Shown in pieces: positions 3,322 through 20,674 of a DNA stretch of 24,197 nt. Under the pieces are notes generated by a model. That model was not told where the DNA came from and ran no database searches. It saw only the letters and a list, made by a program, of their open reading frames with translations. How positions within the stretch are numbered: the stretch's first letter is position 1; every line of letters begins with the position of its first letter. Position numbers and translations under genes: made by a program. The DNA comes from a virus (Duplodnaviria > Heunggongvirae > Uroviricota > Caudoviricetes): positions 1-24,197 of the IMG/VR virus record IMGVR_UViG_2619619133_000006; one strand, written 5' to 3'.

Positions 3322-3322
3322 C

Positions 3323-4126: not shown

Positions 4127-4145
4127 ACTTCGTTTCTCCTCTTAA

Positions 4146-4330
4146 TCAGGCGGCTGCACCCGCCGGTTTCTCGTACTTACTGATAGTGATCTCGACCTTC
4201 CCTTCCGGGATAACCGGTCCCCACTCCACCAGCATTCTTTTCACCTGACTGTCGTCTTCCCACACACCCGCGTGGGTCAGGGCGTCAAACAGCGCCTTGT
4301 TATAGTTGTCCAGATCGCGGATCCGGTTAC
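4146..4330 (-). pseudogene. rusA: RusA-like Holliday-junction resolvase remnant (C-terminal part only, no start codon)
   Basis: Minus-strand frame translates to ..NRIRDLDNYNKALFDALTHAGVWEDDSQVKRMLVEWGPVIPEGKVEITISKYEKPAGAAA*, matching the RusA C-terminal half ([25 protein letters not shown]) as recalled. Frame is closed by TGA at 4370-4368; neither other frame encodes a RusA N-terminus. Confidence 0.5.
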
Positions 4331-4944
4331 AGGGCGATGATTTTTTTCCAGAGCCACTGTGCGCAGGTCAAATCATCCTGCGTTCCCCACTGGCGCTTTT
4401 TAGGGCTGAATACAACCGCATCAGGATGGCGAGTTAAAAAATCCTGTTCATCCGTCTGCGTGTCCGGTTGCGAAGCGTCCGGACGAGAAGTTTTTTTATC
4501 TGACGGATCATGTTTTGATTTTACTGACGGATCCCCGCCAGATTCTGACGGGTGAAAACCCGCTTTTTTGCCAGATTTCGACGCATCAAATTTTGACGGG
4601 TCAGATTTTGATGCGTCAGATTTTGACGGGTCAGAATCTGACAGTTGAGAAAATGCCGCTGCCTGAAGCTTCGCAACGTTAAGCTGATAAACATTCGACG
4701 CATTGCGGTTACCCTGGCGACGCGCCTTACGCGTTAACCAGCCTTCTGCTTCCAGCCGTGCGATAGCCGTTCTGACGGTACTCATCCCCGCGCCAATCTG
4801 GCGGGCAATGGTTTCAATTGATGGCCAGCACACACCTTCGTCATTACTGAAATCAGCCAGGCGGGCCATAACTGCCACGCTGGATAATTTCATGCCTGAT
4901 GCAGCGCAACCATCCCATACATAGCCGGTTAATTTAGTGCTCAT
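4327..4944 (-). CDS. Replication initiator-like protein (N-terminal winged HTH, repeat-rich linker), possibly C-terminally truncated
   Basis: 205-aa ORF; N-terminus VAVMARLADFSNDEGVCWPSIETIARQIGAGMSTVRTAIARLEAEGWL resembles the HTH of phage O-type initiators; central DPSKSDASKSDPSKFDASKS repeats; no helicase-loader gene follows. Confidence 0.5.
   Translation of the reverse strand: MSTKLTGYVWDGCAASGMKLSSVAVMARLADFSNDEGVCWPSIETIARQIGAGMSTVRTAIARLEAEGWLTRKARRQGNRNASNVYQLNVAKLQAAAFSQLSDSDPSKSDASKSDPSKFDASKSGKKAGFHPSESGGDPSVKSKHDPSDKKTSRPDASQPDTQTDEQDFLTRHPDAVVFSPKKRQWGTQDDLTCAQWLWKKIIAL
4498..4644. repeat. About 7 tandem 15-bp repeats (consensus GATTTTGACGGGTCA) inside the replication gene; candidate origin iterons
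   Basis: Copies at about 4517, 4541, 4575, 4589, 4604, 4619, 4634. Period 15 bp (5 codons), so also a peptide repeat. Confidence 0.6.
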
Positions 4945-5155
4945 GACCGACCTCTATTTCCCTGAATTTACGACGAAACTGTTCGAGCGGGCTGAAGCAC
5001 TCATGCTCATAGCCTTCGCGGAGGTAGATAACCCGTTGTGTTTCCGGCTCCCAACGAATGACTCTGACGGGCACTCCGTAGTGATCTTTGAACCAGCGGT
5101 TAACTTGTCGCAAAGGACTGTCTCCTTCTGCCGGTTGAAATCCCCCACAGCCCAC
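4934..5155 (-). CDS. Alternative/overlapping ORF, 73 aa, protein-like
   Basis: [51 protein letters not shown] looks like a folded domain; its stop overlaps the start of the replication gene. May be the C-terminal part of a frameshifted gene with 4954-5292. Confidence 0.3.
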
Positions 5156-5292
5156 TCTGCAAAGCTGTGGGTTACAATTTCCCTGTCACCTGGTACATTC
5201 ACTGCATAGCAATACTCCACCTTCGCTTTTCCACCCGGTACAGGAAGCGCAATCAGTTGCGAGCGACGGTAGTGTGTTGTTAAACTGTTCAT
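4954..5292 (-). CDS. Hypothetical early-region protein (overlaps an alternative frame; possibly frameshifted)
   Basis: Start ATG overlaps the upstream stop as ATGA (5292-5289), suggesting coupling. The N-terminal half looks protein-like; the C-terminal half is low-complexity. Confidence 0.3.
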
Positions 5293-5840
5293 GCGTTAGT
5301 TTCTCCACAGTCACGACACGCCACGGCGCCCGGAGCTGCACACTCGCGGGCGTCATTACTTTCTGAAATGCAAAAAATTTTGTAGACCAGTGCTGCATGC
5401 TCCTGCAGCTTCGAAATTGAGAGGTACAGCTCATCGTTAATTGCTGTCTTCTCATGCGGTTCCACTACACCGTCTTCAATTGCTGAACGAATCTGTTTTG
5501 AATAACTGCCGATCTGTTCAATGACTTCCAGCAGACGTTGGTTGATATCGGCGTTGTCCACATCCTCGACATCAGGAAGAGACACAAAGACGCCATTTGC
5601 AGACTGCGCCACAGCGTCAGCAATGAAGTGAGTTCCACCAGCACGTTGTAAAATCATTGCCCATCCCAGCGGGAAAATTTGATCGCCATCGGCACGAAGG
5701 CGATTAAATAATGCGTTCTCTGTTACATCCAGCCAGTCAGCTGCTTCAGCGTAACCCCCCGGCAACGCTGCGATAGTTTTTCTGACAGCTTTCACGTACC
5801 ACTCAGGCTGTTTTTCTACTTTCCAGTGATGCTTACCCAC
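5289..5840 (-). CDS. Hypothetical early regulatory protein (in the CII/YdaT position)
   Basis: 183-aa ORF directly downstream of the Cro-like gene with an overlapping start. Assignment by position only. Confidence 0.4.
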
Positions 5841-6093
5841 GGTTCACCTCCTGTTCCTGTGGTTTAAACCCATTCTGGTTTTGGCTAGATTGAAAACGTG
5901 CCGGATAAAGAATCTGCATTTCGCTGACTTCACCCTTAAAAAAATTGGCTAAACGTTCTGCAAGCTCGATAGATGGAATCTGCTCCAGCCTCTCAATACG
6001 ACTCAACGTCGCTGGATTGACTTGAACACCCGCAGCAACATGCTGCAAAGTGAAACCATGCGCCTTACGCACATTTCGTAATGGTGATTGCAT
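5833..6093 (-). CDS. Cro-like HTH (XRE-family) regulator
   Basis: 86-aa ORF divergent from the repressor gene; HTH segment HGFTLQHVAAGVQVNPATLSRIERLEQIPSIELAERLANFF; GGAGGG RBS upstream. Confidence 0.6.
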   Translation of the reverse strand: MQSPLRNVRKAHGFTLQHVAAGVQVNPATLSRIERLEQIPSIELAERLANFFKGEVSEMQILYPARFQSSQNQNGFKPQEQEVNRG

Positions 6094-6107
6094 ACGCCCT
6101 CCAAATA

Positions 6108-6170
6108 TTGCGCGTTATGCATGTTATTTCACGCAATTATTTTGCGCAAGTTGATTTGCTTATCACGCAA
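6108..6170. promoter_or_regulatory. Right operator region (OR-like) between cro-like and cI-like genes
   Basis: TTGC-N7-GCAA at 6156-6170 (perfect), TTGC-N7-GCAT at 6108-6122, palindrome TTGCGCAA at 6142-6149; lies in the 97-bp divergent intergenic region. Confidence 0.45.
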
Positions 6171-6190
6171 TAAAGAAATGTAATAAACGC

Positions 6191-6883
6191 ATGAACATAG
6201 GAAACCGAGTCAGACAACTTCGCCAAGCGAAGAACATGAAAATCGCCGATCTCGCTGAAGCAATAGGAGTAGATGCGGCGAACATCTCGCGCTTAGAAAC
6301 GGGTAAGCAAAAACAATTTACCGAACAAACACTGAGTAATATTGCCAAGAGCTTAGGTGTTGATATTGCTGATCTCTTTACCTCTGCCCACAAAAGTAAT
6401 ACTGTATATAAAAACAGTAATGATGAGGATGTTGCGCAGGTGAAGGATGTGTTCCGTATTGAAATGCTGGATATCAGTGCCAGTGCGGGAAATGGCCTTA
6501 TCCAGGGCGGTGATGTCATTGATGTGATTCATGCCATCGAATACAGAACTGATAATGCTGTATCAATGTTCGGCGGACGACCAGCCAATCACATCAAAGT
6601 TATCAACGTTCGTGGGGACAGTATGTGTCCAACCATTGAGCCAGGAGATCTCATCTTCGTTGATGTCAGCATCAATCAGTTTGATGGTGATGGTATATAT
6701 GTCTTTGGTTTTGATGACAAAATATACGTTAAAAGACTTCAAATGATTCCTGACAAACTGCTGGTGATTTCTGATAACCAGATTTACCGTGAATGGGGAA
6801 TTACTAGCGAAAACGAACACCGATTCATGGTCTTTGGAAAGGTCTTAATCAGTCAGTCGCAAACCCTTAAGAGACATAATTAA
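6191..6883 (+). CDS. CI-like prophage repressor (N-terminal XRE HTH plus C-terminal S24 LexA-like autopeptidase)
   Basis: 230-aa ORF; HTH IADLAEAIGVDAANISRLETGKQ; S24 motifs GDSMCPTIEPGDLIFVD and IYVKRL (Ser/Lys dyad); divergent from the cro-like gene. Confidence 0.8.
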   Translation: MNIGNRVRQLRQAKNMKIADLAEAIGVDAANISRLETGKQKQFTEQTLSNIAKSLGVDIADLFTSAHKSNTVYKNSNDEDVAQVKDVFRIEMLDISASAGNGLIQGGDVIDVIHAIEYRTDNAVSMFGGRPANHIKVINVRGDSMCPTIEPGDLIFVDVSINQFDGDGIYVFGFDDKIYVKRLQMIPDKLLVISDNQIYREWGITSENEHRFMVFGKVLISQSQTLKRHN

Positions 6884-6901
6884 CCTCAATATCCTTCCAT
6901 C

Positions 6902-6923
6902 GGCCACCGAAAGGTGGCTTTTT
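6902..6923 (+). terminator. Intrinsic terminator after the repressor gene
   Basis: Stem ggccacc / ggtggc with GAAA loop, followed by TTTTT. Confidence 0.6.
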
Positions 6924-6936
6924 ATTACCTATCAAT

Positions 6937-6973
6937 TTGCATATTCCGCAAATATCACTTGCATATCTCGCAA
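6937..6973. promoter_or_regulatory. Left operator region (OL-like): two TTGC-N7-GCAA sites
   Basis: Perfect TTGC-N7-GCAA at 6937-6951 and 6959-6973, centres 22 bp apart; same core as the OR sites. Confidence 0.45.
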
Positions 6974-7159
6974 TTTAATTTTATCTTTTGTTCCAGACCA
7001 ACTACAGGATTACAACAAAATCTGGTTGCAACACGGTGCATGTGTCGTAAGCAGTCAGTAAATGTCAAAAACGAACAGGCAGGACGCCCACGAAGTAGCC
7101 GCCTGGGGCATATGAAGTCCAGGATGATTCGTTGAGTCATGTTGTGCCACTAGGCACTC

Positions 7160-7456
7160 ATGTTAAAGCAGGTGTATGAAATGAAAGTCCAGATTTTAAA
7201 CAATAACTGTGAAGTCGTTTGGTCATACGACATAGCCGCCCCTGTAGATCAGAGCGGCGATAGCTGGACCAATGGGAAACATCAGATTATGGCTGGAGTT
7301 GTGTTCTCTTTACGCCGTGCTTTGGAACAGGCTGAAGTATTTCCATCAGACCCTGAATGGAAATGGCCTTTTTCTATTTGTCCAAATTCGGAGAGTACAT
7401 TTCAGAAAATTGGTCAGAAAGTCGCACTCGAAGAGCATCAGCCAACTGTTTCCTGA
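7160..7456 (+). CDS. Hypothetical protein (early-left region)
   Basis: 98-aa ORF downstream of the putative OL/pL; no recognisable motif. Confidence 0.3.
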   Translation: MLKQVYEMKVQILNNNCEVVWSYDIAAPVDQSGDSWTNGKHQIMAGVVFSLRRALEQAEVFPSDPEWKWPFSICPNSESTFQKIGQKVALEEHQPTVS

Positions 7457-7873
7457 TTTTTTCAGGTAACTCGTCGGCATCGCAGAAACAACAACGCTCG
7501 ATCATGTTGAAAGCCGATTCGTAGAACTGTTTCTGCTGAGTGTCGCTGAGACAGGAAAAGAGCGACGTTACGATGATTTTATTAATGCATTATCAAGTTC
7601 TTTTTCATCAAAAGTCATTTGATTTTCCTTTTATGTATACGGGCTTAAAAGGATACCACCGAGCCTGAAGTGGTGAAAAGACAGGCACATAACAGCTAAG
7701 TATTTTCAACCAAAGAGAATCCTTAGCGTTGTGGTGAATGCGGCTCAGCGCACGCGGGTTAAGGTTGAGGCTGACAGTCGACCTTCTGTAGATACCCACC
7801 CGCCTGGTGTGCAACCTTCGCCAGGCACCGGGAGGCACCCGGCACCACAACTTTATGCTGTGTGTAGTCCTGG

Positions 7874-7919
7874 CGGTACCAGTTTGTACCCTTGCTTCCG
7901 GCTGGTACCGTTCTTTTTA
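7874..7919 (+). terminator. Terminator-like hairpin (9-bp stem, large loop) followed by TTCTTTTT
   Basis: cggtaccag (7874-7882) pairs with ctggtaccg (7902-7910), then a T-rich run. The 19-nt loop makes this uncertain. Confidence 0.3.
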
Positions 7920-8007
7920 CAAAACAGAGAAGAGCATCACCGGACGACGGGCTCATAAACCAATCCATCCGGGCGGCTGCCACCGCAGGTGTTCTTCTCT
8001 GTTTTGT
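7919..8007. repeat. Long inverted repeat (15-bp perfect arms, 55-nt spacer) just upstream of the yfdP-like gene
   Basis: acaaaacagagaaga (7919-7933) is the exact reverse complement of tcttctctgttttgt (7993-8007). Confidence 0.6.
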
Positions 8008-8055
8008 GGAGAAACTAATCGGCCTTGCAGGGTCGATATGATGAGGAGCAGCAAA

Positions 8056-8418
8056 ATGGCTAGCGAACGCAGTACTGATGTGCAGGCATTTATCGGGGAG
8101 CTGGACGGCGGCGTATTTGAAACCAAAATCGGCGCAGTTCTCAGTGAAGTCGCTTCCGGTGTGATGAACACGAAAACCAAAGGTAAGGTCTCACTCAACC
8201 TGGAAATCGAACCATTTGATGAGAACCGTGTGAAAATCAAACACAAACTCTCATATGTTCGCCCGACTAACCGCGGGAAAATTTCCGAAGAAGACACCAC
8301 CGAAACGCCGATGTATGTCAATCGCGGTGGTCGCCTGACTATTCTGCAGGAAGACCAGGGACAGTTACTGACTCTTGCCGGTGAACCTGACGGAAAACTC
8401 CGCGCAGCAGGTCGTTAA
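8056..8418 (+). CDS. yfdP: YfdP-like prophage protein
   Basis: 120-aa product from the ATG at 8056 with AGGAG RBS; the track ORF 7807-8418 extends upstream through non-protein-like sequence. Length and position before the yfdQ-like gene match CPS-53 as recalled. Confidence 0.45.
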   Translation: MASERSTDVQAFIGELDGGVFETKIGAVLSEVASGVMNTKTKGKVSLNLEIEPFDENRVKIKHKLSYVRPTNRGKISEEDTTETPMYVNRGGRLTILQEDQGQLLTLAGEPDGKLRAAGR

Positions 8419-8483
8419 TATCGTTCTTAATTAACTGATTATTTATCTCATCACTGAATATCTTTATATAGTGAGGACTTATT

Positions 8484-9308
8484 ATGTCTCAGAACTTAGA
8501 CGCAACCGCAATTAATCAAATCCATGCCCTTATTTCTGCTCAGGGTGTTAATGAAATTATCAGTAAGATTGGTGCCGATGCTGTGGCATTGCCTGAGAAT
8601 TTCCGCATTCATGATCTGGAAAAATTTAATTTAAATCGCTTCCGTTTCCGTGGTGCGCTTTCCACTGCCAGCATCGATGACTTTACCCGTTATTCTAAAG
8701 ATCTTGCAGATGAAGGCACCCGCTGCTTTATCGATGCTGATAATATGCGTGCCGTCAGTGTGCTTAACCTGGGTACTATTGATGAACCAGGTCACGCAGA
8801 TAACACCGCCACACTCAAACTGAAAAAGACAGCACCGTTCTCTGCTCTGTTGACTGTTAACGGCGAGCGTAACTCCCAGAAGTCACTGGCAGAATGGATT
8901 GAAGACTGGGCCGACTATCTTGTGGGCTTTGATGCTAATGGTGACGCTATTCAGGCAACAAAAGCGGCTGCGGCTGTCCGTAAAATCACGATTGAAGCAA
9001 ACCATACCGCTGATTTTGAAGATAATGACTTCAGCGGCAAACGCTCCCTGATGGAGTCTGTCGAAGCGAAGACCAAAGACATTATGCCAGTGGCATTTGA
9101 ATTTAAATGCATTCCGTTTGAAGGTCTGAAAGAACGTCCGTTTAAATTACGCCTCAGCATTATCACTGGCGATCGTCCGGTACTGGTTCTGCGCATTATT
9201 CAGCTGGAGGCGGTGCAGGAAGAAATGGCTAACGAATTTCGTGATCTGCTTGTTGAGAAATTCAAGGACAGCAAAGTAGAAACCTTTATTGGTACTTTCA
9301 CCGCCTGA
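8484..9308 (+). CDS. yfdQ: YfdQ-like DUF2303 protein
   Basis: 274-aa ORF; same size and neighbourhood as CPS-53 yfdQ, from memory. Confidence 0.55.
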
Positions 9309-9320
9309 TTTCATTACTGC

Positions 9321-9342
9321 AAATGCCCCTGCGGGGGCATTT
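9321..9342 (+). other. Perfect 9-bp stem-loop between the yfdQ-like and yfdR-like genes
   Basis: aaatgcccc-tgcg-ggggcattt; no clear U-tract, so possibly an attenuator or mRNA-stability element rather than a terminator. Confidence 0.35.
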
Positions 9343-9435
9343 ATGGAAACGTAATTTACTCAATAATCGCCGGATGGTGAGGGATTCTTTTTACCAGAAT
9401 TCAGCGCGGTGCAGCGCATATACGTGGAGAACAAA

Positions 9436-9972
9436 ATGTCATTTATTAAAACTTTTTCCGGGAAGCATTTTTATTATGACAGGATAAATAAAGACGACAT
9501 CGATATTAACGATATCGCGGTTTCCCTTTCAAATATCTGTCGCTTTGCCGGTCATCTTTCGCACTTCTACAGCGTCGCCCAACATGCGGTTCTTTGCAGC
9601 CAGCTGGTGCCGCAGGAATTTGCTTTTGAAGCGTTAATGCATGATGCAACAGAAGCGTATTGCCAGGACATTCCCGCACCACTGAAACGCCTTCTTCCTG
9701 ACTATAAACAAATGGAAGAAAAAATAGACGCCGTAATCCGTGAGAAATACGGGTTACCCCCGGTTATGAGTACGCCCGTGAAATATGCCGATCTCATCAT
9801 GCTGGCAACCGAACGCCGCGATCTCGGGCTTGATGATGGCTCTTTCTGGCCTGTACTGGAAGGTATCCCGGCAACAGAGATGTTCAACGTGATTCCACTG
9901 GCACCGGGCCATGCCTACGGGATGTTTATGGAACGCTTTAACGAGTTATCGGAGTTACGCAAATGCGCATGA
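9436..9972 (+). CDS. yfdR: YfdR-like HD-domain phosphohydrolase (5'-deoxynucleotidase family)
   Basis: 178-aa product from the internal ATG with GGAGAA RBS; His/Asp-containing motifs (CRFAGHLSHFYSVAQH, LMHDATEAYCQDIP) are consistent with an HD-domain fold. Confidence 0.55.
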   Translation: MSFIKTFSGKHFYYDRINKDDIDINDIAVSLSNICRFAGHLSHFYSVAQHAVLCSQLVPQEFAFEALMHDATEAYCQDIPAPLKRLLPDYKQMEEKIDAVIREKYGLPPVMSTPVKYADLIMLATERRDLGLDDGSFWPVLEGIPATEMFNVIPLAPGHAYGMFMERFNELSELRKCA

Positions 9973-10325
9973 ATGTTTTCGAAATGGAAGGGTTTCTTCG
10001 TGGGAGATGTGTACCGCGAGATCTGAAAGTAAATGAAACAGATGCTGAATACCTGGTGCGTAAATTCGATGCGCTTGAAGCTAAATGTGCAGCACAGGAA
10101 AACAAAGTAATACCAGTGTCAACTGAACTGCCACCAGCAAATGAAAGTGTTTTGTTATTCGATGCTAACGGAGAAGGCTGGCTAATTGGCTGGCGTTCTC
10201 TCTGGTACACCTGGGGACAAAAAGAAACCGGAGAATGGCAGTGGACATTTCAGGTCGGGGACCTTGAAAACGTCAATATCACTCACTGGGCAGTAATGCC
10301 AAAAGCACCGGAGGCTGGAGCATAA
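9963..10325 (+). CDS. yfdS: YfdS-like protein
   Basis: 120-aa ORF overlapping the upstream stop; size and order as in yfdQRST. Confidence 0.45.
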   Translation: MRMNVFEMEGFLRGRCVPRDLKVNETDAEYLVRKFDALEAKCAAQENKVIPVSTELPPANESVLLFDANGEGWLIGWRSLWYTWGQKETGEWQWTFQVGDLENVNITHWAVMPKAPEAGA

Positions 10326-10630
10326 TGACCACTTTTACCGACAAAGAACTGATTAAAGAAATTAAAGAGCGTATCAGCAGCCTTGACGTGCGAGACGATA
10401 TTGAGCGCCGTGCTTATGAAATCGCACTCCTATCTCTGGAAGTAGAACCAGATGAACGCGAAGCTTATGAATTATTCATGGAAAAGCGTTTCGGTGACTT
10501 AGTAGATCGTCGGAGAGCAAAAAACGGCGATAACGAATACATGGCATGGGATATGACTCTCGGTTGGATCGTCTGGCAGCAACGAGCTGGTATCCATTTT
10601 TCAACAATGTCACAGCAAGAGGTGAAATAA
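10325..10630 (+). CDS. yfdT: YfdT-like protein
   Basis: 101-aa ORF; start overlaps the upstream stop (TAATG). Confidence 0.45.
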   Translation: MTTFTDKELIKEIKERISSLDVRDDIERRAYEIALLSLEVEPDEREAYELFMEKRFGDLVDRRRAKNGDNEYMAWDMTLGWIVWQQRAGIHFSTMSQQEVK

Positions 10631-10980
10631 TGGAGCCATACAGCCTCACACTCGATGAGGCCTGTCATTTTCTCAAGATATCCAGACCGACTGCCATTAA
10701 CTGGATACGCACAGGGCGTCTTCAGGCAACACGCAAAGATCCCACTAAGAATAAATCTCCTTACCTCACAACACGACAAGCCTGCATTGCGGCGCTTCAG
10801 TCTCCGCTGCATACTGTCCAGGTGAGCGCGGGTGATGGCATAACAGAGGAAAGAAAATGTCACTCTTCCGCAGAGGTGAAATATGGTACGCCAGTTTCAC
10901 ATTGCCGAACGGTAAAAGATTTAAACAGTCTCTTGGAACAAAGGACAAAAGGCAGGCGACAGAACTCCATGACAAGCTAA
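10630..10980 (+). CDS. Excisionase-like (Xis/AlpA-type HTH) protein; C-terminal extension overlaps int
   Basis: Starts at the ATG overlapping the upstream stop; N-terminus [33 protein letters not shown] is Xis-like and sits immediately upstream of int. The last ~40 codons overlap int and look non-protein-like. Confidence 0.4.
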
Positions 10981-12020
10981 AGGCTGAAGCATGGCGGGGC
11001 AGCAAACTTGGTGAAATACCTGATATAACGTTCGAGGAAGCGTGTGTCAGGTGGCTTGAAGAGAAAGCACATAAAAAATCACTGGACGATGACAAAAGCC
11101 GGATCGGATTCTGGCTTCAACATTTCGCAGGAATGCAACTAAGAGACATTACTGAATCAAAAATTTATTCAGCAATGCAGAAAATGACGAACCGGCGTCA
11201 TGAGGAAAACTGGAAACTCAGGGCAGAAGCATGCAGAAAAAAAGGGAAACCTGTTCCAGAATACACGCCAAAACCAGCGTCCGTTGCAACGAAGGCTACG
11301 CATCTTTCATTTATAAAGGCCCTACTAAGAGCCGCAGAGCGTGAATGGAAAATGCTGGATAAGGCACCAATTATTAAAGTGCCTCAACCAAAGAATAAAC
11401 GGATCCGCTGGCTGGAGCCCCATGAAGCACAAAGGCTGATTGATGAATGTCCGGAGCCATTAAAGTCTGTTGTTGAATTTGCACTGGCAACAGGCTTAAG
11501 ACGCTCGAACATCATCAACCTTGAATGGCAACAAATAGATATGCAGCGCCGGGTGGCATGGATAAACCCAGAAGAGAGTAAATCAAACCGCGCAATCGGC
11601 GTTGCGCTGAATGATACTGCATGTCGCGTTTTGAAAAAACAAATCGGGAATCATCACCGTTGGGTATTTGTGTACAAGGAAAGCTGTACCAAACCAGACG
11701 GAACGAAAGCGCCAACAGTAAGGAAGATGCGGTATGACGCAAACACAGCCTGGAAAGCGGCGCTGAGACGGGCTGGTATTGATGATTTCAGATTTCACGA
11801 CTTGAGACACACCTGGGCAAGTTGGCTGGTTCAAGCCGGAGTCCCGTTGTCAGTGTTACAGGAAATGGGAGGCTGGGAGTCTATCGAAATGGTTCGTCGA
11901 TATGCTCACCTTGCACCTAATCACCTTACCGAACACGCACGGCAAATAGACTCGATCCTGAACCCATCGGTCCCAAATTTGTCCCAGTCAAAAAATAAGG
12001 AAGGTACTAATGATGTGTAA
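10857..12020 (+). CDS. int: Tyrosine integrase, P22 Int / DLP12 IntD type
   Basis: 387-aa ORF; N-terminus [34 protein letters not shown] recalled as the P22/DLP12 integrase family; catalytic motifs [11 protein letters not shown] and MVRRYAHL; 10 bp from the tRNA-Thr core. Confidence 0.85.
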
Positions 12021-12029
12021 CTTATTGAT

Positions 12030-12048
12030 TTAAATGGTGCCGATAATA
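12030..12048 (-). other. att core: 19-bp copy of the 3' end of tRNA-Thr (thrW), not a complete tRNA gene
   Basis: tggtgccgataataggagt is the reverse complement of ACTCCTATTATCGGCACCA, the thrW 3' end as I recall it. Flanking sequence diverges from the tRNA, so only the core is present. Confidence 0.45.
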
Positions 12049-12196
12049 GGAGTAAAACACTCGATTAATCTCGTGTTAATGCCATCACCTACGACCATTA
12101 CTAATTGATTGAATCTTATAGAAAAAATCATCATTTTCTATGCATTACAATCAATTTTCACATTACAAACGCTCCGACACTTTAGCCGGGGAGTTT

Positions 12197-13474
12197 ATGA
12201 GATACAAGCCCAATCAATACATAATCTGTGATTCTTACGGTAACTACTATTTGAGGATCACGTTGCCTGTGTATATGCAGCCCTTTTTTGAAGGAAAAAG
12301 GACGTTTGTCAGGAGTCTGCATACAAGTAACCTTCGTGTTGCACGTAGAAAGCGTGATCAGATTGCAGATGAATACCATTGTTTACGGGAGAGTGTCGCC
12401 CCTGTAAACAGCACAATAGAGAACACGCTGGAACTGTTACGCAGTAAGGCTAAATACGCCAAAACAGCTACCAGAATGCAAGATACAGCGTCTTCGTGTC
12501 CGTCATTGCTTAAAATTCTTGAAATCTACCTGACAATTAACAGCACGAAGAAGAAGCCAGCCACTTTAGCTAAGGCAAGAAAAGCGGTAGAGATGTTTCT
12601 CTCCTACCGTAAAAAGCCTGATATTGCATTGCAAGATGTGAGCCGCACCACTGTTACAGGCTGGATTGAACACATGCAAAAAACCCTTTCACAACAATCA
12701 ATTGCAAATTATATCAGCCCAATGGCCCAGCTATGGGAGTTAGCTTCATCACGTTACCACGATGCGCCAGAAAGGGCGCTCTCCCCCTGGCGAGGGCATA
12801 GGCTTGATGTGGCACAAAGTAGAGAGAGCTACGAGGCATTTTCTAACAAAGAGCTATTGCAGGTGTTGCAAGTATTTTCCGGTAATTCAGCAGAAAACAA
12901 AGAAATGATGGCTTTGTGTCTTATCGGTGCTTATACAGGTATGCGGATCAATGAGATAGCAAGTCTCACAATAGACGATGTGAAAGAGATCGAAGGTGTG
13001 CTGTGTTTTGAAATCACACAGGGAAAAACGAAAGCTGCGGCACGTGTTGTGCCTGTACATAGCCTTATCACTCCGTTGGTGTTGTCGCTGCGTGAAAAGC
13101 CTCATAATGGCTTTTTGTTCTATCACGCCAGCATTACAGAGCGTGCTGATGGTAAACGTTCCACGTGGCACACGCAGAGATTTACAAGAGCTAAACGAAA
13201 GGCTTTAGGGGAAAAGGGAACAGAAAGGAAGGTGTTTCATTCTCTGAGACACGGAGTAGCACAGCTTCTTGATCGAAATCAAATTCCAGAAGACAGGATC
13301 GCCCTTCTCCTGGGCCATACACGCGGTAATACAGAGACATTCCGCACATATAGCAAGAATGCAGCTTCTCCAGTAGAGCTTAAAAACTATATTGAGCTTC
13401 TACGCTACCCTGAAATAGAGAAAGGCTTATCAATCAATAAAAAATCAAATTTAAGGCGTAAAACAACGCCATAG
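12197..13474 (+). CDS. Tyrosine integrase (second, unrelated family)
   Basis: Likely start at the internal ATG with GGGGAG RBS (track ORF begins at 12140). Catalytic motifs HSLRHGVAQLL and ETFRTYSKN; N-terminus NGNYYLRITLP typical of integrase arm domains. Confidence 0.75.
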   Translation: MRYKPNQYIICDSYGNYYLRITLPVYMQPFFEGKRTFVRSLHTSNLRVARRKRDQIADEYHCLRESVAPVNSTIENTLELLRSKAKYAKTATRMQDTASSCPSLLKILEIYLTINSTKKKPATLAKARKAVEMFLSYRKKPDIALQDVSRTTVTGWIEHMQKTLSQQSIANYISPMAQLWELASSRYHDAPERALSPWRGHRLDVAQSRESYEAFSNKELLQVLQVFSGNSAENKEMMALCLIGAYTGMRINEIASLTIDDVKEIEGVLCFEITQGKTKAAARVVPVHSLITPLVLSLREKPHNGFLFYHASITERADGKRSTWHTQRFTRAKRKALGEKGTERKVFHSLRHGVAQLLDRNQIPEDRIALLLGHTRGNTETFRTYSKNAASPVELKNYIELLRYPEIEKGLSINKKSNLRRKTTP

Positions 13475-13481
13475 ACGCAAT

Positions 13482-13520
13482 AAAGAGGCTTCAACATAGA
13501 TTGGTAGCCTCTTTTATAAT
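13482..13520 (+). terminator. Hairpin with a weak T-tract after the second integrase
   Basis: aagaggct / agcctctt stem with 15-nt loop, followed by TTTATAATT. Confidence 0.35.
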
Positions 13521-13555
13521 TACATCGTTACAGAGCGTTTTAGAGGCATTTACGG

Positions 13556-14269
13556 CTATTCCTGTTTAAAGGCAGGAGTAATAGTGTCTTCACCTTCACT
13601 ACTAGATTTTTCAGTGTTAACACGTTTTTTCATATTAGCCCCGATGTTCTTAGATGGCTGTGTTTTGATAGCTACAGTGTTTACAGTGCCATAAGACACT
13701 AATCTTATTTGCTCAAAGCTAAGATCAAATACCAGAGATTCGCTTGCCTCTTCTGTGTATTCGATGCCTGTTAAAACAACGTTCTCAAAAGTTTTATTTT
13801 CTGTAACAAGAAGAAAAGGCTGTCTACTGTCCATAATCTGATTCAGGTAGTCGATAGCTAATGATCTTCTGTTCCCGTTCACCCCTGCACTCTTTAACAA
13901 GCCAGGATCGCTTTTAATCGGTGTTTCAGTGATCCTTCCCTTAAGAGAAAACTTATTGTTTTTAATTTGAACGTGATCAGACACAGTAGCACCATTCTCT
14001 ACGGGGTAGCTTGTGACATCTGCCGAACGTCTCACGTTCACATCATCTACACTGTCAAAGGCCAGTGCCATATAATTTTCATAAACGTCATTGCCAGAAG
14101 ATGCCAAGCCACTTGTAACAATAGCAAATCCATTCTCTCCTTTTGTTTTATTAGCTTTGCTATTTTCGTTTTTTGTAGAGTTTATATCTTGTTCTGCTTT
14201 GTAAACAGCCTGAACGTGTTGTTCTGGAGTATTTGCTGCACGTATGGTTAAAATTCCCGCCGTTGCCAT
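13556..14269 (-). CDS. Hypothetical protein (virion-protein-like composition)
   Basis: 237-aa ORF with AAGGAAA RBS; rich in N/S/T/G; last gene of the minus-strand cluster, facing the integrase. Confidence 0.4.
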   Translation of the reverse strand: MATAGILTIRAANTPEQHVQAVYKAEQDINSTKNENSKANKTKGENGFAIVTSGLASSGNDVYENYMALAFDSVDDVNVRRSADVTSYPVENGATVSDHVQIKNNKFSLKGRITETPIKSDPGLLKSAGVNGNRRSLAIDYLNQIMDSRQPFLLVTENKTFENVVLTGIEYTEEASESLVFDLSFEQIRLVSYGTVNTVAIKTQPSKNIGANMKKRVNTEKSSSEGEDTITPAFKQE

Positions 14270-14290
14270 AATAATAATTTCCTTGTAATG

Positions 14291-16132
14291 TTATGGCGGA
14301 AATTCCCCGCCGTTAGATTGTCCTGATAAGCTGGTTAATGTTAATGATTTCAAGAAGCTATCCCGACTTGCTCTCGCTGTAAAATCCACATAATCGCTTA
14401 ATCTTGATGTGTCACTATTAATAGTAAGCGGAACCTCTGTTACCACTTCAAATGTAGGATTCAGATTAAACACAGGAGATAAATTATAAGCCGGAGTTGT
14501 CATTGCAAGATTATTTAAAGCACCCTGTTTGAGATTGGTTATCGGTGCTTCATTGACTGACATTTTTACATCTGACACAGAAGATTTATCATCGAAAAGC
14601 AATCCCTTAATCGTGTTAAAGAGAGAATGACTATTATCAGGTGTAGTTGTTGCAGTGCCAGCGCCTTTATATTGATCAGGAACGAGATTAGAAAGATTCT
14701 GTTTCATTCCGTCATTGCTTAATGGCGGTGCATCACCTAAATTTTTCTGAATAGCCTCTGTCTTATCATCATTACGATTAAACCAGTTTACAATCTTCAT
14801 AATAGCTTCAAAGAGACTTCCTACAGCTTCTCCCAGCTTCGTAAAATACGGAGTGAGATTAGAAAGGTTTTTCATAAACTCTTCCGTTACTTTTGGATCG
14901 AGAGATTTCATAAAGCCATCAACAAAGGCGATCCCTTGTGAGTCAGAAAGCCCACTAAGTGCATTATTCAGTTCACGGAATTTAATAACGCTTTCCTGTT
15001 GTGCCTGTGTTACCCAGCGCCCTGATTCTCGTTGTTCTCGTGCTGATTGTTCCACTTCTTTAGCGGAGCGTGTCCAGTATTTAGAGGTGAGCATCAAATC
15101 ATCAGCCAGATCTTCCAGACGACTACCGATCTGCGCATCTGAATAGCCCTTTTTCACCATTCCATTGACAGCTTTACTAACCAGACCAGCCGGATTATCA
15201 GCAAAGTCTTTTAAATCTTTCTTAGTTAAGAAACCTTCGTTAAGTAAAGTATTAATACCTGAATCGCCGCCCTTCCATTCGCCTCGGCCTGTTTTCTTAT
15301 CAACTACATATTCAGCTTCATCATAAGATTTGGTTGCACGTTCACGCACATCTTTCATCTGATCCAGATACTTGCGACGACCTTGATCCCCCATCATTGA
15401 ATCAACGCCGTTTTTATACGCCCATTGTTCAATATTGTTCATCTGGTTAACATCTACACCGCCCAGCTTCGCACGGCTATACAATTCACCCAGCGTTTCA
15501 GCGTTAGCGAAGCTGTTAGCCATAAATTCAGAGGTTTTACTAACAGCCATCACGCCAGCAGCAGCCGTAGCGCCTCCAAATAACAGAGCGCCCATAGTGG
15601 CGGAATTCCCTGATCCTCCCTTAACGGGGGCTAATTGTGCTTTTCTGTTGCCATTAATTTTACGTTGTTGCTGTTGTAAGCGTTTCATCTGGCTATTCAT
15701 ACGTGCAAGCGAGATAGCGCCTTGTTCGTATTGTTTGGCTATCTCACGCGCCTGTGCAATAGCTTTGTATTGTTCCGCTACAGAGAGGCGGTGCATTGCA
15801 CTGATAGAGCTTGAAACATCAAGGAGCTTTAACTCTGCTTTCTCTTTACGTGCTGCTATTTGTGCCTGTTGCCTTGCCTGTGCTCTTGCTGCGGCAGCTT
15901 GTGCTTTTTGATTCTGTTTTTCGTTTTTCGCTTTTTGCTGGGTAATCTTGTCTACTTCACTTTGTGCTTTCTTATAGCCTTTAGTGACACTATCAAACCT
16001 TAATTTAGCTGGCTTGATATTTTCTGTGAATTCTTTTAGGCTTGTAATAGAGTCTTTCGCTTTTTTCAAGCTGTCTTTATCTACACTAAATGTTACTGTG
16101 TTCTTAATTTTAGAAGTGTTAATTTCTAACAT
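14291..16132 (-). CDS. Large hypothetical protein with N-terminal coiled-coil/low-complexity region (structural or ejection-protein-like)
   Basis: 613-aa ORF with GGGGA RBS; N-terminal KAKNEKQNQKAQAAAARAQARQQAQIAARKEKAELK; no catalytic motif recognised. Confidence 0.45.
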   Translation of the reverse strand: MLEINTSKIKNTVTFSVDKDSLKKAKDSITSLKEFTENIKPAKLRFDSVTKGYKKAQSEVDKITQQKAKNEKQNQKAQAAAARAQARQQAQIAARKEKAELKLLDVSSSISAMHRLSVAEQYKAIAQAREIAKQYEQGAISLARMNSQMKRLQQQQRKINGNRKAQLAPVKGGSGNSATMGALLFGGATAAAGVMAVSKTSEFMANSFANAETLGELYSRAKLGGVDVNQMNNIEQWAYKNGVDSMMGDQGRRKYLDQMKDVRERATKSYDEAEYVVDKKTGRGEWKGGDSGINTLLNEGFLTKKDLKDFADNPAGLVSKAVNGMVKKGYSDAQIGSRLEDLADDLMLTSKYWTRSAKEVEQSAREQRESGRWVTQAQQESVIKFRELNNALSGLSDSQGIAFVDGFMKSLDPKVTEEFMKNLSNLTPYFTKLGEAVGSLFEAIMKIVNWFNRNDDKTEAIQKNLGDAPPLSNDGMKQNLSNLVPDQYKGAGTATTTPDNSHSLFNTIKGLLFDDKSSVSDVKMSVNEAPITNLKQGALNNLAMTTPAYNLSPVFNLNPTFEVVTEVPLTINSDTSRLSDYVDFTARASRDSFLKSLTLTSLSGQSNGGEFPP

Positions 16133-16147
16133 TTAAAATCCCCCTTA

Positions 16148-16351
16148 TTAATCATTTTTACAACCTTCTTTACTTAAGAAATGGTGTAGAGCCTGATCAA
16201 TACTCTCGTTTAATCTGAACATACGGGCTTTTACTCCTTCATATGGAACATCTAAGAGAGAACATAGATATTTCAGATTTAACAAGCCTCTAGAATCATT
16301 AGCATCTAAATGTACGTGGACACCATTTTTTGATTTCAGAATCACTTCCAT
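16148..16351 (-). CDS. Small hypothetical protein
   Basis: 67-aa ORF with GAGAGGTGA RBS immediately after the A19 terminator. Confidence 0.35.
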   Translation of the reverse strand: MEVILKSKNGVHVHLDANDSRGLLNLKYLCSLLDVPYEGVKARMFRLNESIDQALHHFLSKEGCKND

Positions 16352-16373
16352 ATTTTAATCACCTCTCAAAATT

Positions 16374-16420
16374 AAAAAAAAAAAAAAAAAAAGGCGAAGC
16401 GTGAATACACGCCACGCCTC
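16374..16420 (-). terminator. Strong intrinsic terminator after the capsid-like gene, with a 19-nt homopolymeric T tract
   Basis: On the minus strand: hairpin ggcgtggcgtg-tatt-cacgcttcgcc (about 10 bp, one mismatch) followed by T19 (A19 on the plus strand, 16374-16392). Confidence 0.6.
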
Positions 16421-16436
16421 TATTACACGTTAAATA

Positions 16437-17465
16437 TTATTTAACAGTGATTTGAACGGAGAAGCCTACACCGTGGTTTACAACCATCTGGCTATTCTCT
16501 GTAACAACGTTAACAGCATCACCACGAGAAGATTCATAGCTATAGCTGTAAACCTCAGTAGGAGCGGCATTAATCAGTTCAAAGGTGCTGGAAGCAGCCC
16601 CGTAGATGTTCTGATATACGTTAGAGCCTTTAGCGAATTTAGGCACAGCTACAGCGTCTGCGGTCATATGTGCAAGGTGTAGCGGATCTACCAGTTTAAC
16701 AACATCAATGTTAGTTCCTGGAATAGTGAACGCTGTCACCCCTGGCAGCAGGTCACGACGCTGATACACAACGTTCCCTTCTTCCAGTGGGCTTACATAC
16801 TGGAATGCGTTTGCCATACCCGCAGAGAATCGAATTGCAGAGAAGGCTTCCGGCTTACAGAAAACAACAATACGCTCTACAGCAGCCGCCTGGCTTTGTG
16901 CTTTCTCGATAATGTCAGTAGCAATCTGATCAAATTCTTTAAAAATCTTCGTGGTGTCAGTGCTGGAAGCGTTCACAGTGGCTTTCATAGCTGATACGTT
17001 AAACAGCTTGCCCCACTCGATAAGAACATCATCAGTTTTAGGCGTGTAAGTTTTGCCAGAGAACAAAGAAGCCGCCAACACGCTCTCTTTAGTGCGCTGA
17101 TACGCTACGTGGTGTTTAGCAACATAGTCAGCATAGATATCAGTGAGTGTTTCCTGGAAATCAGTGCCAGGTTTACGTTTGCCTTGAACATCAGAAGGAC
17201 GGATCACATCTTCACGAAGAAAATACGGGATTTCAATCAGCCATTCTTTACCTTGTTCTCGCTTAGTAACGTTGTGTTCAGAAGAGAAACGAGAGGTTTC
17301 TTTGTTAAAGAGAGATTCGTTGCTTTCGACAAGCTGGGAAACAGCTACTTTATGAGAACTAACGCCCACCGGATCAGTGAAGTCGAGGGTAGAGAGCAGA
17401 TAGTTTCTAGTGCTATGAGCCTGGAAAAGCGGAGCTAAATCAACGTAATCATTACCTAGAATCAT
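16437..17465 (-). CDS. Putative major capsid protein (local similarity to T7 gp10-type capsid protein)
   Basis: 342-aa ORF. VERIVVFCKPEAFSAIRFSAGMANAFQYVSPLEEGNVVYQRRDLLPGVTAFTIPGT parallels T7 gp10A ADRVFYCDPDSYSAILAALMPNAANYAALIDPEKGSIRNVMGFEVVEVPHLT as recalled. Size, strong terminator after it and operon position fit a highly expressed structural gene. Confidence 0.45.
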   Translation of the reverse strand: MILGNDYVDLAPLFQAHSTRNYLLSTLDFTDPVGVSSHKVAVSQLVESNESLFNKETSRFSSEHNVTKREQGKEWLIEIPYFLREDVIRPSDVQGKRKPGTDFQETLTDIYADYVAKHHVAYQRTKESVLAASLFSGKTYTPKTDDVLIEWGKLFNVSAMKATVNASSTDTTKIFKEFDQIATDIIEKAQSQAAAVERIVVFCKPEAFSAIRFSAGMANAFQYVSPLEEGNVVYQRRDLLPGVTAFTIPGTNIDVVKLVDPLHLAHMTADAVAVPKFAKGSNVYQNIYGAASSTFELINAAPTEVYSYSYESSRGDAVNVVTENSQMVVNHGVGFSVQITVK

Positions 17466-17483
17466 TTATTATTATTCCTTTTA

Positions 17484-17846
17484 TTAAGAAGTGAAAACAG
17501 AGTGGAACCCTTCAAGCTGGAAGCCTTTTTTAATTAATGCTGTTTTTGCTGCTTCACTTACAGCATTCAGCGCATCAGCTTTGATGCAGACAAGCCCAGC
17601 ATTGCTACGTAGCACATCTACAGGCTTGTTGTCTCCAGCCGTTAAAAACTCACTCATAACAACATAGATATCATCTCCTGATTCATATTTAGCGCCAGTG
17701 CTTGTGATCAAGTCGCCGCACTCAACATCAGCAGGAAGAGAAGCAAAAACCTTGCTTTCTACAGAGGCAAACGGATCAGTACAATAACTTACAATATCTG
17801 TGAAAGTCTTTCGAACTGGAAATAGAGTGTCTAAATCAATAATCAT
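17484..17846 (-). CDS. Hypothetical protein upstream of the capsid-like gene
   Basis: 120-aa ORF overlapping the upstream stop (ATGA). Confidence 0.4.
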   Translation of the reverse strand: MIIDLDTLFPVRKTFTDIVSYCTDPFASVESKVFASLPADVECGDLITSTGAKYESGDDIYVVMSEFLTAGDNKPVDVLRSNAGLVCIKADALNAVSEAAKTALIKKGFQLEGFHSVFTS

Positions 17847-18055
17847 TTAGTAATCTCCTTAGCTTTTAATTTGATTAATTCATTAAGGGAAGGTGTAGAC
17901 GGAGAAGAAGGAGAAAAATATTTTTCAACACATCTTTCTACTTCCTCGACAGAACACCCAGCGTATTTAGCTACCATTTCGGTAATTTGTGGATTAATTT
18001 TCAGCATTTCATCTTTATACTTGATGATTTGCTCTTTATCATTTAAGAACAACAT
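17843..18055 (-). CDS. Small hypothetical protein
   Basis: 70-aa ORF, first gene after the 18.06-18.39 kb intergenic region. Confidence 0.35.
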   Translation of the reverse strand: MLFLNDKEQIIKYKDEMLKINPQITEMVAKYAGCSVEEVERCVEKYFSPSSPSTPSLNELIKLKAKEITK

Positions 18056-18329
18056 TTATATAAACCTTGTTACCTTGTTTAAAGTAAGAAATACAACTTT
18101 TAAGTTGCATAACGGGCAAAATAAAAGGCAGCATTTAAAGCCGCCTTTGTAATTACCCTATGTTATGCACACTCCAAGATGTATGCATAACAAAGGAAAA
18201 AAGAGGTAATAATGACACAGTATTTACTTAAGGAGGAGAAGCGGGGAGCGGAGATTTTACTCCCCTTTAACGACAAGAAGAATTTTTAATATCGAACCAA
18301 TAAAGGAAAAATAATCACCCCATATAATT

Positions 18330-18358
18330 ATATTAACATACAATAGATGGAATGTCAA
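18330..18358 (-). promoter_or_regulatory. Candidate sigma70 promoter for the capsid-containing operon
   Basis: Minus strand TTGACA (18358-18353), 17-bp spacer, TAATAT (18335-18330). Downstream palindromes CAACTT-TT-AAGTTG (18095-18108) and TTATGCA-N14-TGCATAA (18163-18190) could be operators. Confidence 0.35.
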
Positions 18359-18387
18359 GATATTTTACAACTTTTTTGTTGCTTTTT

Positions 18388-18726
18388 TTATTCTTCTGTG
18401 ATAGTAGCGCCTAAGCGTTGAGCTAGTTCAACAAGTCCGTCTCCTACATAGCGAACGTCCGATTCAAGACCTTCTATCCAGTTTGATAGCTCCCATAGCT
18501 GAGCCGCTGTCAGATATGCGTTCTCACGCTTACAGAGCATCTCTACACGCTTAGAGAGGTGCTCAAAGGCATTCACAGCTAAATCCCAGTGTTTAAACGC
18601 CTCATTTAGTGCCGCTGGCGTGTTTTCTTTGTATGCTTCAAGTTCAGCGCGGTTTAAAGGCAGGAGGTAATCATCCTCATAATAATTAATTAGTGAATAA
18701 ATTGTGTCATACGTGTTTTTGTTCAT
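18388..18726 (-). CDS. Hypothetical protein
   Basis: Likely start at the ATG at 18726 (GGAGA RBS, 2 nt after the upstream stop) rather than the track start at 18753; about 112 aa. Confidence 0.4.
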   Translation of the reverse strand: MNKNTYDTIYSLINYYEDDYLLPLNRAELEAYKENTPAALNEAFKHWDLAVNAFEHLSKRVEMLCKRENAYLTAAQLWELSNWIEGLESDVRYVGDGLVELAQRLGATITEE

Positions 18727-18727
18727 A

Positions 18728-19138
18728 TTAAAAGTCTCCATAGTGATCAACATTATCTAGAATATGGAATTCTGGGACTAAATTATTTAGGCCATTTGTG
18801 GCGAGATAACCAACGTAGTGGTTATAGTCTTCAAATCCTAAAATCTGGTATTTGCGGAGTTCGTCAGAACTAACAATATACTCTTTTCTTTTTCTAGGTT
18901 TCCAGAATACACCAGGTGTTGAAGATAAGATTTCTTGTAATGCGTTAAATTCATCTCCACAAGGCACAGAGGGAGAATGTTCTATGATCTCTGTTTTCCA
19001 TTCGCCAGGGGCGCTATTTTGCTTGGTGAGCGTAACTAGCTCTTTAAAGTCTTTACGTCTTAGAATAGATTTAGGTTTACTTAGAAGAGAAGCTGAATCA
19101 CCGATTTTCTTAACAACGTTGTTTTTTCTTTTTGCCAT
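18728..19138 (-). CDS. Hypothetical basic protein
   Basis: 136-aa ORF; lysine/arginine-rich N-terminus MAKRKNNVVKK. Confidence 0.4.
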   Translation of the reverse strand: MAKRKNNVVKKIGDSASLLSKPKSILRRKDFKELVTLTKQNSAPGEWKTEIIEHSPSVPCGDEFNALQEILSSTPGVFWKPRKRKEYIVSSDELRKYQILGFEDYNHYVGYLATNGLNNLVPEFHILDNVDHYGDF

Positions 19139-19270
19139 TATTTACTTTTCCTTTTCTTTTAAAGGAAAACACCCCGAAGTATGTTTCTAACGTGAGAAAG
19201 AACAATAACCAATACATAGCTACTATCATAATAATGTTTTCCTTTTATATTTTAATTACATAGAGAGATT

Positions 19271-19546
19271 TTAGAGAGTGGAATAGATGAATTCTACTTT
19301 ATCTAGTCTTTTGAGATTGAATGTAGAGAAAGATAATTCTTTAATCTCTATAACACCGAAATTTGATAGCTGTCTAAGCCAGAATTTTAAACCATCTTCA
19401 GAGCAAGCTGCTCGATGTAACACATCGCTATATTTTAGCGGTGTTGGCTTTCCTTTATAGAGGTAAGCAAGTGTTTCGTAGATGCGTTTTCCTGTGTCAT
19501 TACACTGAATTCTGTCTACTTGATTTTTTACTAAATATTGAATCAT
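19271..19546 (-). CDS. Small hypothetical protein
   Basis: 91-aa ORF in the operon. Confidence 0.35.
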   Translation of the reverse strand: MIQYLVKNQVDRIQCNDTGKRIYETLAYLYKGKPTPLKYSDVLHRAACSEDGLKFWLRQLSNFGVIEIKELSFSTFNLKRLDKVEFIYSTL

Positions 19547-19557
19547 AACCCTCCTTA

Positions 19558-20247: not shown

Positions 20248-20298
20248 TAAAAATCTCCTTATAAATCACGCTTAATGCGCTACTAAAGTGAATGAGGA

Positions 20299-20466: not shown

Positions 20467-20485
20467 AGTTTTCTCCTTCTATTCT

Positions 20486-20674
20486 TTACTCTGTTTCAGA
20501 TTCTTTTTCATTTTTTCTTAATTCATCAATAATCTTGAGTGCTTCATTGAAGCAAGCTGCTCGCTCTGGATAACCTCGACTCCTTGCCATATTACGATTC
20601 ATTACTATTTGATGGCGTGTAAGCTCACCTTTTTTAAATGCCTGGATGACGTGCTCAGATGTAAACCATTTCAT
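20486..20674 (-). CDS. Small hypothetical protein (first gene of the minus-strand operon)
   Basis: 62-aa ORF directly downstream of the candidate promoter at about 20.8 kb. Confidence 0.3.
   Translation of the reverse strand: MKWFTSEHVIQAFKKGELTRHQIVMNRNMARSRGYPERAACFNEALKIIDELRKNEKESETE

Follow-up and report, generated by a model that had tools for sequence, protein, structure and literature searches.

A 19-bp thrW fragment at the probable internal junction of an SfIV-like prophage and an unrelated integrative element in Escherichia coli

The tRNA gene thrW is among the most used integration hotspots of Escherichia coli (PMC7545054) and serves as the integration site of SfIV/P22-type phages (PMC3306764, PMC3636060). 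The SfI paper assigns one attP core to SfI, SfII, SfIV, SfV and SfX, and the att core common to these phages and P22 is 46 bp long, ATTCGTAATGCGAAGGTCGTAGGTTCGACTCCTATTATCGGCACCA, running from ATTCG to CACCA (PMC3636060), with the P22 att site quoted elsewhere as ATGCGAAGGTCGTAGGTTCGACT (PMC8022706). Tandem occupancy of thrW has been described in Shigella flexneri for SfI together with SfX (Sun et al. 2011, PMC3306764), and in O157 clade 8 (PMC9997748), and in E. coli O157:H7 Sakai the prophages Sp1 (lambda-like, intD-type) and Sp2 (P4-like) are annotated in tandem at the same gene. With regard to the geometry of integrase and tRNA genes, both an 'opposite convergent' (thrW-intH) and an 'opposite divergent' (ptwF-intF) arrangement have been defined (Panis et al. 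2010, PMC2951348). Integrases that target tRNA genes cross over either at the anticodon loop, with a long displaced fragment, or at the T-arm/3′ end, with a short one (PMC4383910; bioRxiv 10.1101/2020.11.02.365908), and Islander catalogues 125 tandem arrays made up of a tDNA and displaced 3′ fragments, where each island has its own integrase and fragment and two crossover classes are distinguished (Hudson, Lau and Williams 2015, PMC4383910).

Here we analysed a stretch of viral DNA of 24 197 nt, which at its full length is called the window, and we estimate a probability of roughly 85% that it spans the junction where two integrative elements meet inside a tandem array at E. coli thrW. The element to the right of this junction is called island 2, and the features at and around the junction are the following:

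1..12016, no strand: int-proximal 12 kb of an SfIV-like lambdoid prophage, from homology to prophages, the annotation of loci L003 (VTB97584v) and L006 (22AR0322), and Pfam
10546..10980, plus strand: putative excisionase/HTH protein, upstream of int1 and overlapping it, with a weak TIGR01764 excisionase-domain match below cut-off
10857..12020, plus strand: int1, SfIV/P22-type tyrosine integrase of 387 aa, convergent with the tRNA fragment (Pfam Phage_integrase PF00589, 7e-48)
12017..12034, minus strand: TTTAAATCAATAAGTTAC (tRNA sense), the 18 bp normally found 3′ of thrW, overlapping the int1 stop codon; part of the SfIV-type int-side arm and of the empty site
12035..12053, minus strand: the 19 terminal bp of thrW, an exact single match, serving as att core of island 2 at its tRNA-distal junction and by now as the prophage boundary too
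12054..12196, no strand: distal att arm of island 2 and int2 upstream region, with an identical arm beside the 19-mer in all island-2 loci
12054..24197 and past the right window end, no strand: island 2, of low GC content, from collinear alignment to GF153 and cq9 and from composition
12197..13474, plus strand: int2, tyrosine integrase of 425 aa, divergent from the tRNA fragment (Pfam PF00589, 3e-17; PF13102; PF20172)

The sequence ACTCCTATTATCGGCACCA, present on the minus strand at 12035-12053 as a single exact copy in the window, constitutes the last 19 nt of thrW, spanning the end of the T-loop to CCA and agreeing at 19/19 positions with the thrW 3′ end as annotated in cq9, GF153 and Sakai. 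About 0.01 chance matches to this 19-mer would be expected in shuffled sequence, even with three mismatches allowed. A first-pass annotation of the window, made from its sequence, had described a 19-bp tRNA-Thr 3′ core at 12030-12048; exact alignment bore out its identity with the thrW 3′ terminus in full, whereas its position was off by 5 bp, with 12030-12048 comprising 14 nt of tRNA followed by TTTAA from the downstream flank. Immediately 5′ of the true 19-mer, in tRNA sense, the window has GTGTTTT instead of the GGTTCG found in thrW, and the longer upstream context ends in ...CGAGTGTTTT at the junction versus ...GTAGGTTCG in the tRNA. ARAGORN detected no tRNA gene in the whole window, and no second copy of the core was found within it. 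Because non-tRNA DNA precedes the 19-mer and ARAGORN found no tRNA, we regard it as a displaced tRNA fragment and not as the gene, in line with the earlier proposal that it marks an att junction.

On the left side of the core, the gene int1 ends 14 bp away and not 10 bp away, as had first been given; its proposed P22-type family was correct, since the protein shares 99.7% identity with Int of the Shigella phage SfIV and 89.7% with its counterpart in SPN9CC, a P22-like phage. The overlapping upstream gene has a homologue annotated as an HTH protein in the prophage of VTB97584v. Apart from int1 and xis, the prophage genes within 1..12016 include a holin, an SDH Clp-fold protease moron, Q, DUF968, KilA-N, a cro/cI-like repressor pair and yfdP-T-like early genes. 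Window positions 1-12053 were matched, across at least 80% of this stretch, by prophages of 56 complete E. coli genomes, with 93-94% coverage at 97-99% identity in the best-matching genomes listed, and this homology ended exactly at 12053. The related prophages (L003, and L006 and L007 of 22AR0322) are lambdoid with a contractile-tail late region. It was also seen that the SDH-family Clp-fold serine protease gene (746-1741, plus strand) lies alone between Q (1946-2323) and the holin gene (216-614), that the near-identical prophage of 22AR0322 has a KAP NTPase in this slot instead, and that TIR-domain and DNA-methyltransferase genes are annotated inside the matched regions of other such prophages. 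The position of the protease gene looks like a swappable moron or defence slot; PADLOC returned nothing meaningful with regard to defence genes, and gave no match for the protease slot.

The 18-bp block TTTAAATCAATAAGTTAC was evaluated as a phage-specific sequence following CCA, and this was ruled out, since the same block lies directly 3′ of intact thrW in 948 genomes with an unoccupied site; it is therefore uninformative on origin. It also follows thrW in Sakai Sp1 (L005). In K-12, the ptwF fragment (L004 9210-9255) comprises about 48 bp of thrW and extends as far as the anticodon stem, and the downstream 18 bp, TTAAAATCAAAGAGTTAC, differ at three positions from those in the window. The K-12 version is found at many island-2 loci, so that two alleles of the block downstream of thrW circulate. 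At the unoccupied site, the approximately 55 bp beyond this block (..TNTAQEETW..) share homology with the 3′ terminus of a degraded P22-type integrase pseudogene, with this DNA located at L002 19893-20018, L004 9256-9380 and L009 2165-2467, corresponding to what lies left of window position 12017 when there is no prophage. The pseudogene is still recognisable in Escherichia sp. E1V33, where it displays in-frame stops and 61% identity to Int1 residues 319-380. The empty site is not pristine, and from these remnants it seems that an ancient P22-type prophage left its int-side arm at thrW.

On the right side of the core, int2 begins with an ATG at 12197, preceded by GGAG, at a distance of 143 bp from the core, and the same 425-aa open reading frame is found in the RefSeq annotation. 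The claim that this integrase is unrelated to the one on the left held up well, as the two proteins share a local match of 67 aa only, with 28% identity. Between Int2 and K-12 IntF we found 24% identity over 136 of 425 aa (E 5e-5), and the other island-2 proteins gave no match to the seven CP4-6 genes nearest to intF. The possibility that island 2 is CP4-6, with int2 being intF, was ruled out by the 24% local identity and by the lack of any shared gene among the seven intF-proximal CP4-6 genes compared.

Island 2 has a GC content of 35-46%, as compared with about 50% across most of the prophage, and matches to it in other genomes start from window position 12017 or 12030. It is about 12.8 kb long here, and in cq9 it forms a discrete block of about 13.4 kb between intact thrW-proA and yagP/pao. 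Sequences of island 2 occur in about half of the complete E. coli genomes; in many of them the island, of about 13 kb, occupies the interval from thrW to yagP, with intact thrW at one end and the same 19-mer at the other, and where both ends are visible the direct repeat is 20 bp, i.e. the 19-mer and the next T. The 19-mer in the window is identical to the distal junction of island 2 in GF153, cq9, 22AR0322 and loci L008-L030. Relatives of Int2 at 47% identity also adjoin a 3′ fragment of thrW, and in an exact 40-mer scan using one genome per species the sole match was Escherichia sp. E1V33, at 94% identity. The arm at 12054..12196 has CATTAC(A/T)A-type repeats, with two occurrences of TTGTAATG, and also CGTTTGTAA, which recurs in inverted orientation within the thrW-proximal arm of GF153 (L001 34174-34433). 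Judging by sequence, these repeats may be arm-type sites for Int2 that overlap the presumed int2 promoter, in which case autoregulation of int2 would be predicted, as proposed for ptwF-intF. A promoter and terminator scan around the junction gave no more matches than were obtained in shuffled sequence.

Considering the core and its two arms together, the junction has the last 19 of the 46 core bases, and the other 27 are replaced by island-2 DNA that agrees with the tRNA at about 6 of the 20 positions directly upstream. The upstream arm, GAGTGTTTT, is identical to the distal junction of island 2 in genomes having the island only, and the downstream arm does not differ from what lies 3′ of intact thrW in simple lysogens such as Sakai Sp1. 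Because of the replacement of 27 core bases by island-2 DNA, the upstream arm is that of island 2 and the downstream arm that of the phage. A convergent P22/Sf integrase and the conserved int-side arm, identical to those of Sakai Sp1 and VTB97584v, are thus both present as in an Sf/P22-type attL, but not the 46-bp core beside int, which elsewhere accompanies the same int in full, either within a complete thrW (Sakai Sp1) or as a 46-bp fragment (VTB97584v). No more than the last 3 nt of ATGCGAAGGTCGTAGGTTCGACT fall inside the 19-mer, and with the P22 att site almost wholly outside it, the canonical crossover region of Int1 is missing here. By sequence comparison, then, the junction is the distal att site of island 2 fused to the int-side arm of the phage, and not a normal Sf/P22 attL.

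Complete E. coli genomes were searched with a 3-kb junction probe, at a threshold of at least 80% of the probe, and the int1-core-int2 junction was found in three of them, together with a few having remnants of int1. In GF153 and 22AR0322, which are the two of these three that were inspected, the junction is base-for-base identical to that of the window, with intact thrW and proA situated about 13.2 kb to the right of the core. As the last base of the window corresponds to GF153 position 33829 and thrW starts at 34434, the window ends 605 bp short of thrW on this alignment. The suggestion that two elements are integrated in tandem at one tRNA could thereby be substantiated, with two unrelated elements that both use thrW and with the array itself seen in GF153 and 22AR0322; an intact tRNA beyond the right end, as had also been suggested, is found in these nearest relatives and would lie about 605 bp further on in the window's own genome. 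We infer that thrW, and the outer repeats of that genome, from these close relatives; none of the complete E. coli genomes matched both halves of the window at 99% or above.

In 22AR0322 the prophage looks complete, with its far end comprising the P-arm (..GGATTCTTATA) and the full 46-bp thrW fragment, and since a P4-like element follows beyond this fragment, the array of that genome has three members. In GF153, the P-arm and 46-bp core are found beyond a prophage remnant. The third array member, having psu and ogr/delta (L007 4902-9285 in 22AR0322; L001 5642-11648 in GF153), was seen to carry defence genes of the reverse-transcriptase type, namely Drt3a/b in 22AR0322 and an RNA-directed DNA polymerase in GF153, and the integrase of the GF153 element is split by IS3. 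In 21 complete genomes the order is reversed, with thrW followed by the phage and then by the island, and a full 46-bp copy separates a P22-type phage att arm from the thrW-proximal arm of island 2 (e.g. SF-468, L008). Of 5426 complete genomes, 1214 have this int immediately next to thrW. Across genomes, at least five different neighbouring arms were seen fused to the island-2 arm, in every case exactly at its 19-mer; they comprise the native flank in two variants, a flank from Escherichia sp., the Sf int arm, a vat/P4-type arm and an Sp2-type arm. With 26 IMG/VR loci having int2 also examined, the Sf int arm was found joined to the island-2 arm in the window, in GF153, in 22AR0322 and in two IMG/VR loci that retain remnants of int1.

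Followed in tRNA sense, the array would consist of thrW (off the right end), island 2 with int2 at its far end, the 19-bp core, the 18 bp, and int1 with the prophage. Crossover sublocations at the anticodon loop and at the T-arm/3′ end were reportedly set apart by Williams in 2002, and the location presumed here for the P22-type crossover draws upon the literature together with that account. On the basis of the 46-bp fragment versus the 19-mer, Int1 would belong to the anticodon-loop class and Int2 to the T-arm class, and because the Int1 crossover region is absent, Int2 is the simplest maker of the junction. We consider it rather probable that the phage arrived before island 2 and that Int2 made the junction, both the enzyme and the order being deduced from the sequences at hand. 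An SfIV-type phage would first have integrated beside thrW, rebuilding the last 46 bp of the tRNA and placing its int-side arm directly after CCA; island 2 would then have entered the rebuilt thrW, splitting off the last 19 bp along with the phage arm. The 19-mer would accordingly be a direct repeat produced by the island's own integrase, recombining in the segment of thrW from the T-loop to CCA, and this recombination activity of Int2 is a predicted one. Island 2 might have arrived from outside, or it might have hopped within the same cell, by excision from a thrW-phage-island array and re-entry at the intact tRNA. The 46-bp copy seen in the opposite order in 21 genomes indicates that phages with a P22-type arm take the intact tRNA when island 2 is present, and repeated insertion of island 2 into intact tRNA would be expected to give many neighbour arms at the 19-mer. 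The thrW 3′ fragment found beside the Int2 relatives of 47% identity is a further point in favour of the Int2 route.

What speaks against the phage having come first is that island 2 is common and the tandem rare, which naively suggests an earlier arrival of the island. With island 2 as resident in about half of the complete E. coli genomes, the SfIV-like phage could instead have entered the 19-bp fragment through Int1, using it as a secondary attB with the help of the shared 18 bp, and 37 contiguous bp (19+18) are indeed common to such a site and the phage attP. However, 27 of the 46 core bp, holding the quoted P22 att site, are absent at the junction, and in 21 genomes a phage with a P22-type arm that adjoins island 2 sits at intact thrW and leaves a 46-bp copy; we find this course of events improbable. 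The same 37 bp, being perfectly identical between a phage-occupied thrW and the distal junction of island 2, might have allowed RecA-dependent homologous recombination without any integrase, for example upon import of adjoining chromosomal DNA from another strain, and the locus is highly mosaic between strains. A length of 37 bp is, however, close to the minimum for RecA exchange, and the fusion of at least five neighbour arms exactly at the 19-mer fits better with a site-specific enzyme, so that we rate the RecA route just as low.

The absence of a second core copy and of a tRNA within the window would also agree with the 19-mer being a chance match, or a scar from assembly or deletion, having two integrases as neighbours for unrelated reasons, but such an explanation, with 0.01 chance matches expected, identical junctions in independent complete genomes having thrW at the expected distance, and the homologies of both elements ending precisely at the core, is refuted as far as the data allow and has a negligible probability. 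The end product would be equal whether phage first, island first or RecA applies, and sequence alone can therefore not settle the order of arrival; an insertion of island 2, by Int2, into a thrW already occupied by the phage is nonetheless the course that we favour.

Beyond int2, the following features were found in island 2:

13556..20674, minus strand: leftward block with a Dit-like tail protein, a 613-aa tape-measure-like protein, a gpE-like major capsid protein, several small proteins and HTH_36 (Pfam, PHROGs)
21920..22343, no strand: iteron-like array with AT-rich flanks (repeat search)
23060..23599, plus strand: small serine recombinase (resolvase/invertase; Pfam Resolvase 1e-33)

The leftward block is syntenic in GF153, cq9, 22AR0322 and L008. 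The iteron-like array consists of five tandem 22-bp repeats at 21920-22029 and two more at 22301-22343, with the consensus CTAGCTCACTATGACCTACCCC, and lies within a 2.3-kb ORF-poor stretch (20250-22600) that also has two other short repeat sets (22094-22183 and 20906-20944). From its sequence, the array is a probable replication origin. Neither the window as a whole nor the ORF-poor stretch gave a match in Rfam scans. No portal, terminase, primase or P4 genes were detected in island 2 with Pfam, PHROGs and NCBIfam, and seven of its small open reading frames were without any match using the same three resources. Comparing the gene content with hallmarks of satellites, i.e. psu, sid, delta and primase for P4, alpA and primase-rep for PICI, and portal, protease, terminase small subunit and HK97-type capsid for cfPICI, we saw only the integrase, the gpE-like capsid, the tape-measure-like and Dit-like proteins, the HTH protein and the resolvase.

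The island 2 of 22AR0322 (L006 22555-29769, compared with window 13556-20247) has an equal gene order and intact open reading frames, with proteins that are 26-71% identical to those of the window and a capsid protein without detectable similarity, and yet its int2 and the far-end open reading frame are 96-98% identical. The Int2 relatives at 47% identity (L032-L035) keep homologues of the capsid protein and of the adjacent 120-aa protein. Comparison of these sequences suggests that island 2 is a living element family, possibly a satellite, rather than a decaying prophage. It is a tentative and rather unlikely idea that it would be an active satellite-like family of about 13 kb, having a thrW T-arm integrase, an iteron origin and its own gpE-like capsid, with repeated insertion ahead of residents; tape-measure-like and Dit-like tail proteins are carried in the E. 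coli members. If true, repeated insertion or hopping into intact thrW would explain the tRNA-proximal position of island 2 with respect to each neighbour to which it is joined. In a literature search on thrW and satellites, no description of island 2 was found.

The tandem array at the thrW hotspot is real but ordinary, and of a kind already documented, and knowledge of tRNA-targeted integration is unchanged by it. Exact boundaries can now be given for both elements, and the internal junction falls short of the length of a normal Sf attL, since the crossover site of the partner is another one. With the integrase genes being just 176 bp apart, annotation pipelines tend to merge both elements, and the length of the displaced fragment (19 versus 46 bp) can be used as a readout of which integrase made each junction. 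If any part merits further study it is island 2, seemingly an element family that has yet to be characterised, which is very common, compact, conserved in gene order and divergent in sequence, and has an origin-like array.

Compared with SfI and SfX in S. flexneri (PMC3306764), the array studied here involves the same tRNA gene and the integrase family of int1, with elements placed head to tail around an intervening att copy, and the later arrival inserts at whichever junction of the resident faces thrW, as also proposed here. There, however, both partners are Sf phages, and by analogy their internal junction is expected to keep the full 46-bp core, whereas in the present array an unrelated island having another integrase is the partner, and 19 bp are left. 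In Sakai, as in the array considered here, a prophage with a P22-type int and an identical arm is convergent with thrW, a tRNA fragment is present, and an unrelated element with its own integrase is the other member; the difference is that the phage of Sakai is tRNA-proximal, abutting thrW, with a 46-bp fragment, whereas here the island is tRNA-proximal and the fragment is 19 bp. The ptwF-intF region of K-12 CP4-6 resembles island 2 by occupying the slot from thrW to yagP, with a thrW 3′ fragment at the tRNA-distal end and an integrase gene diverging from it, the same divergent geometry being found in the window and in cq9, and by having an int promoter predicted to overlap the att site (PMC2951348). 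An IntF-type integrase is nevertheless absent here, with IntF being 24% identical over 136 aa, and the K-12 fragment extends for about 48 bp, into the anticodon loop, as opposed to 19 bp. Like the arrays catalogued in Islander, finally, the window contains a tRNA 3′-terminal fragment including CCA (19/19). The window holds int2, the 19-mer and int1; an upstream full-length tRNA of equal orientation, with the island in between, is present in the two relatives with an identical junction (L001, L006), and the prophage's own distal fragment, which lies outside the window, is seen in 22AR0322 as a P-arm with a 46-bp copy. There is no difference in principle from those arrays, the one studied here being a mixed array with one element of each crossover class.
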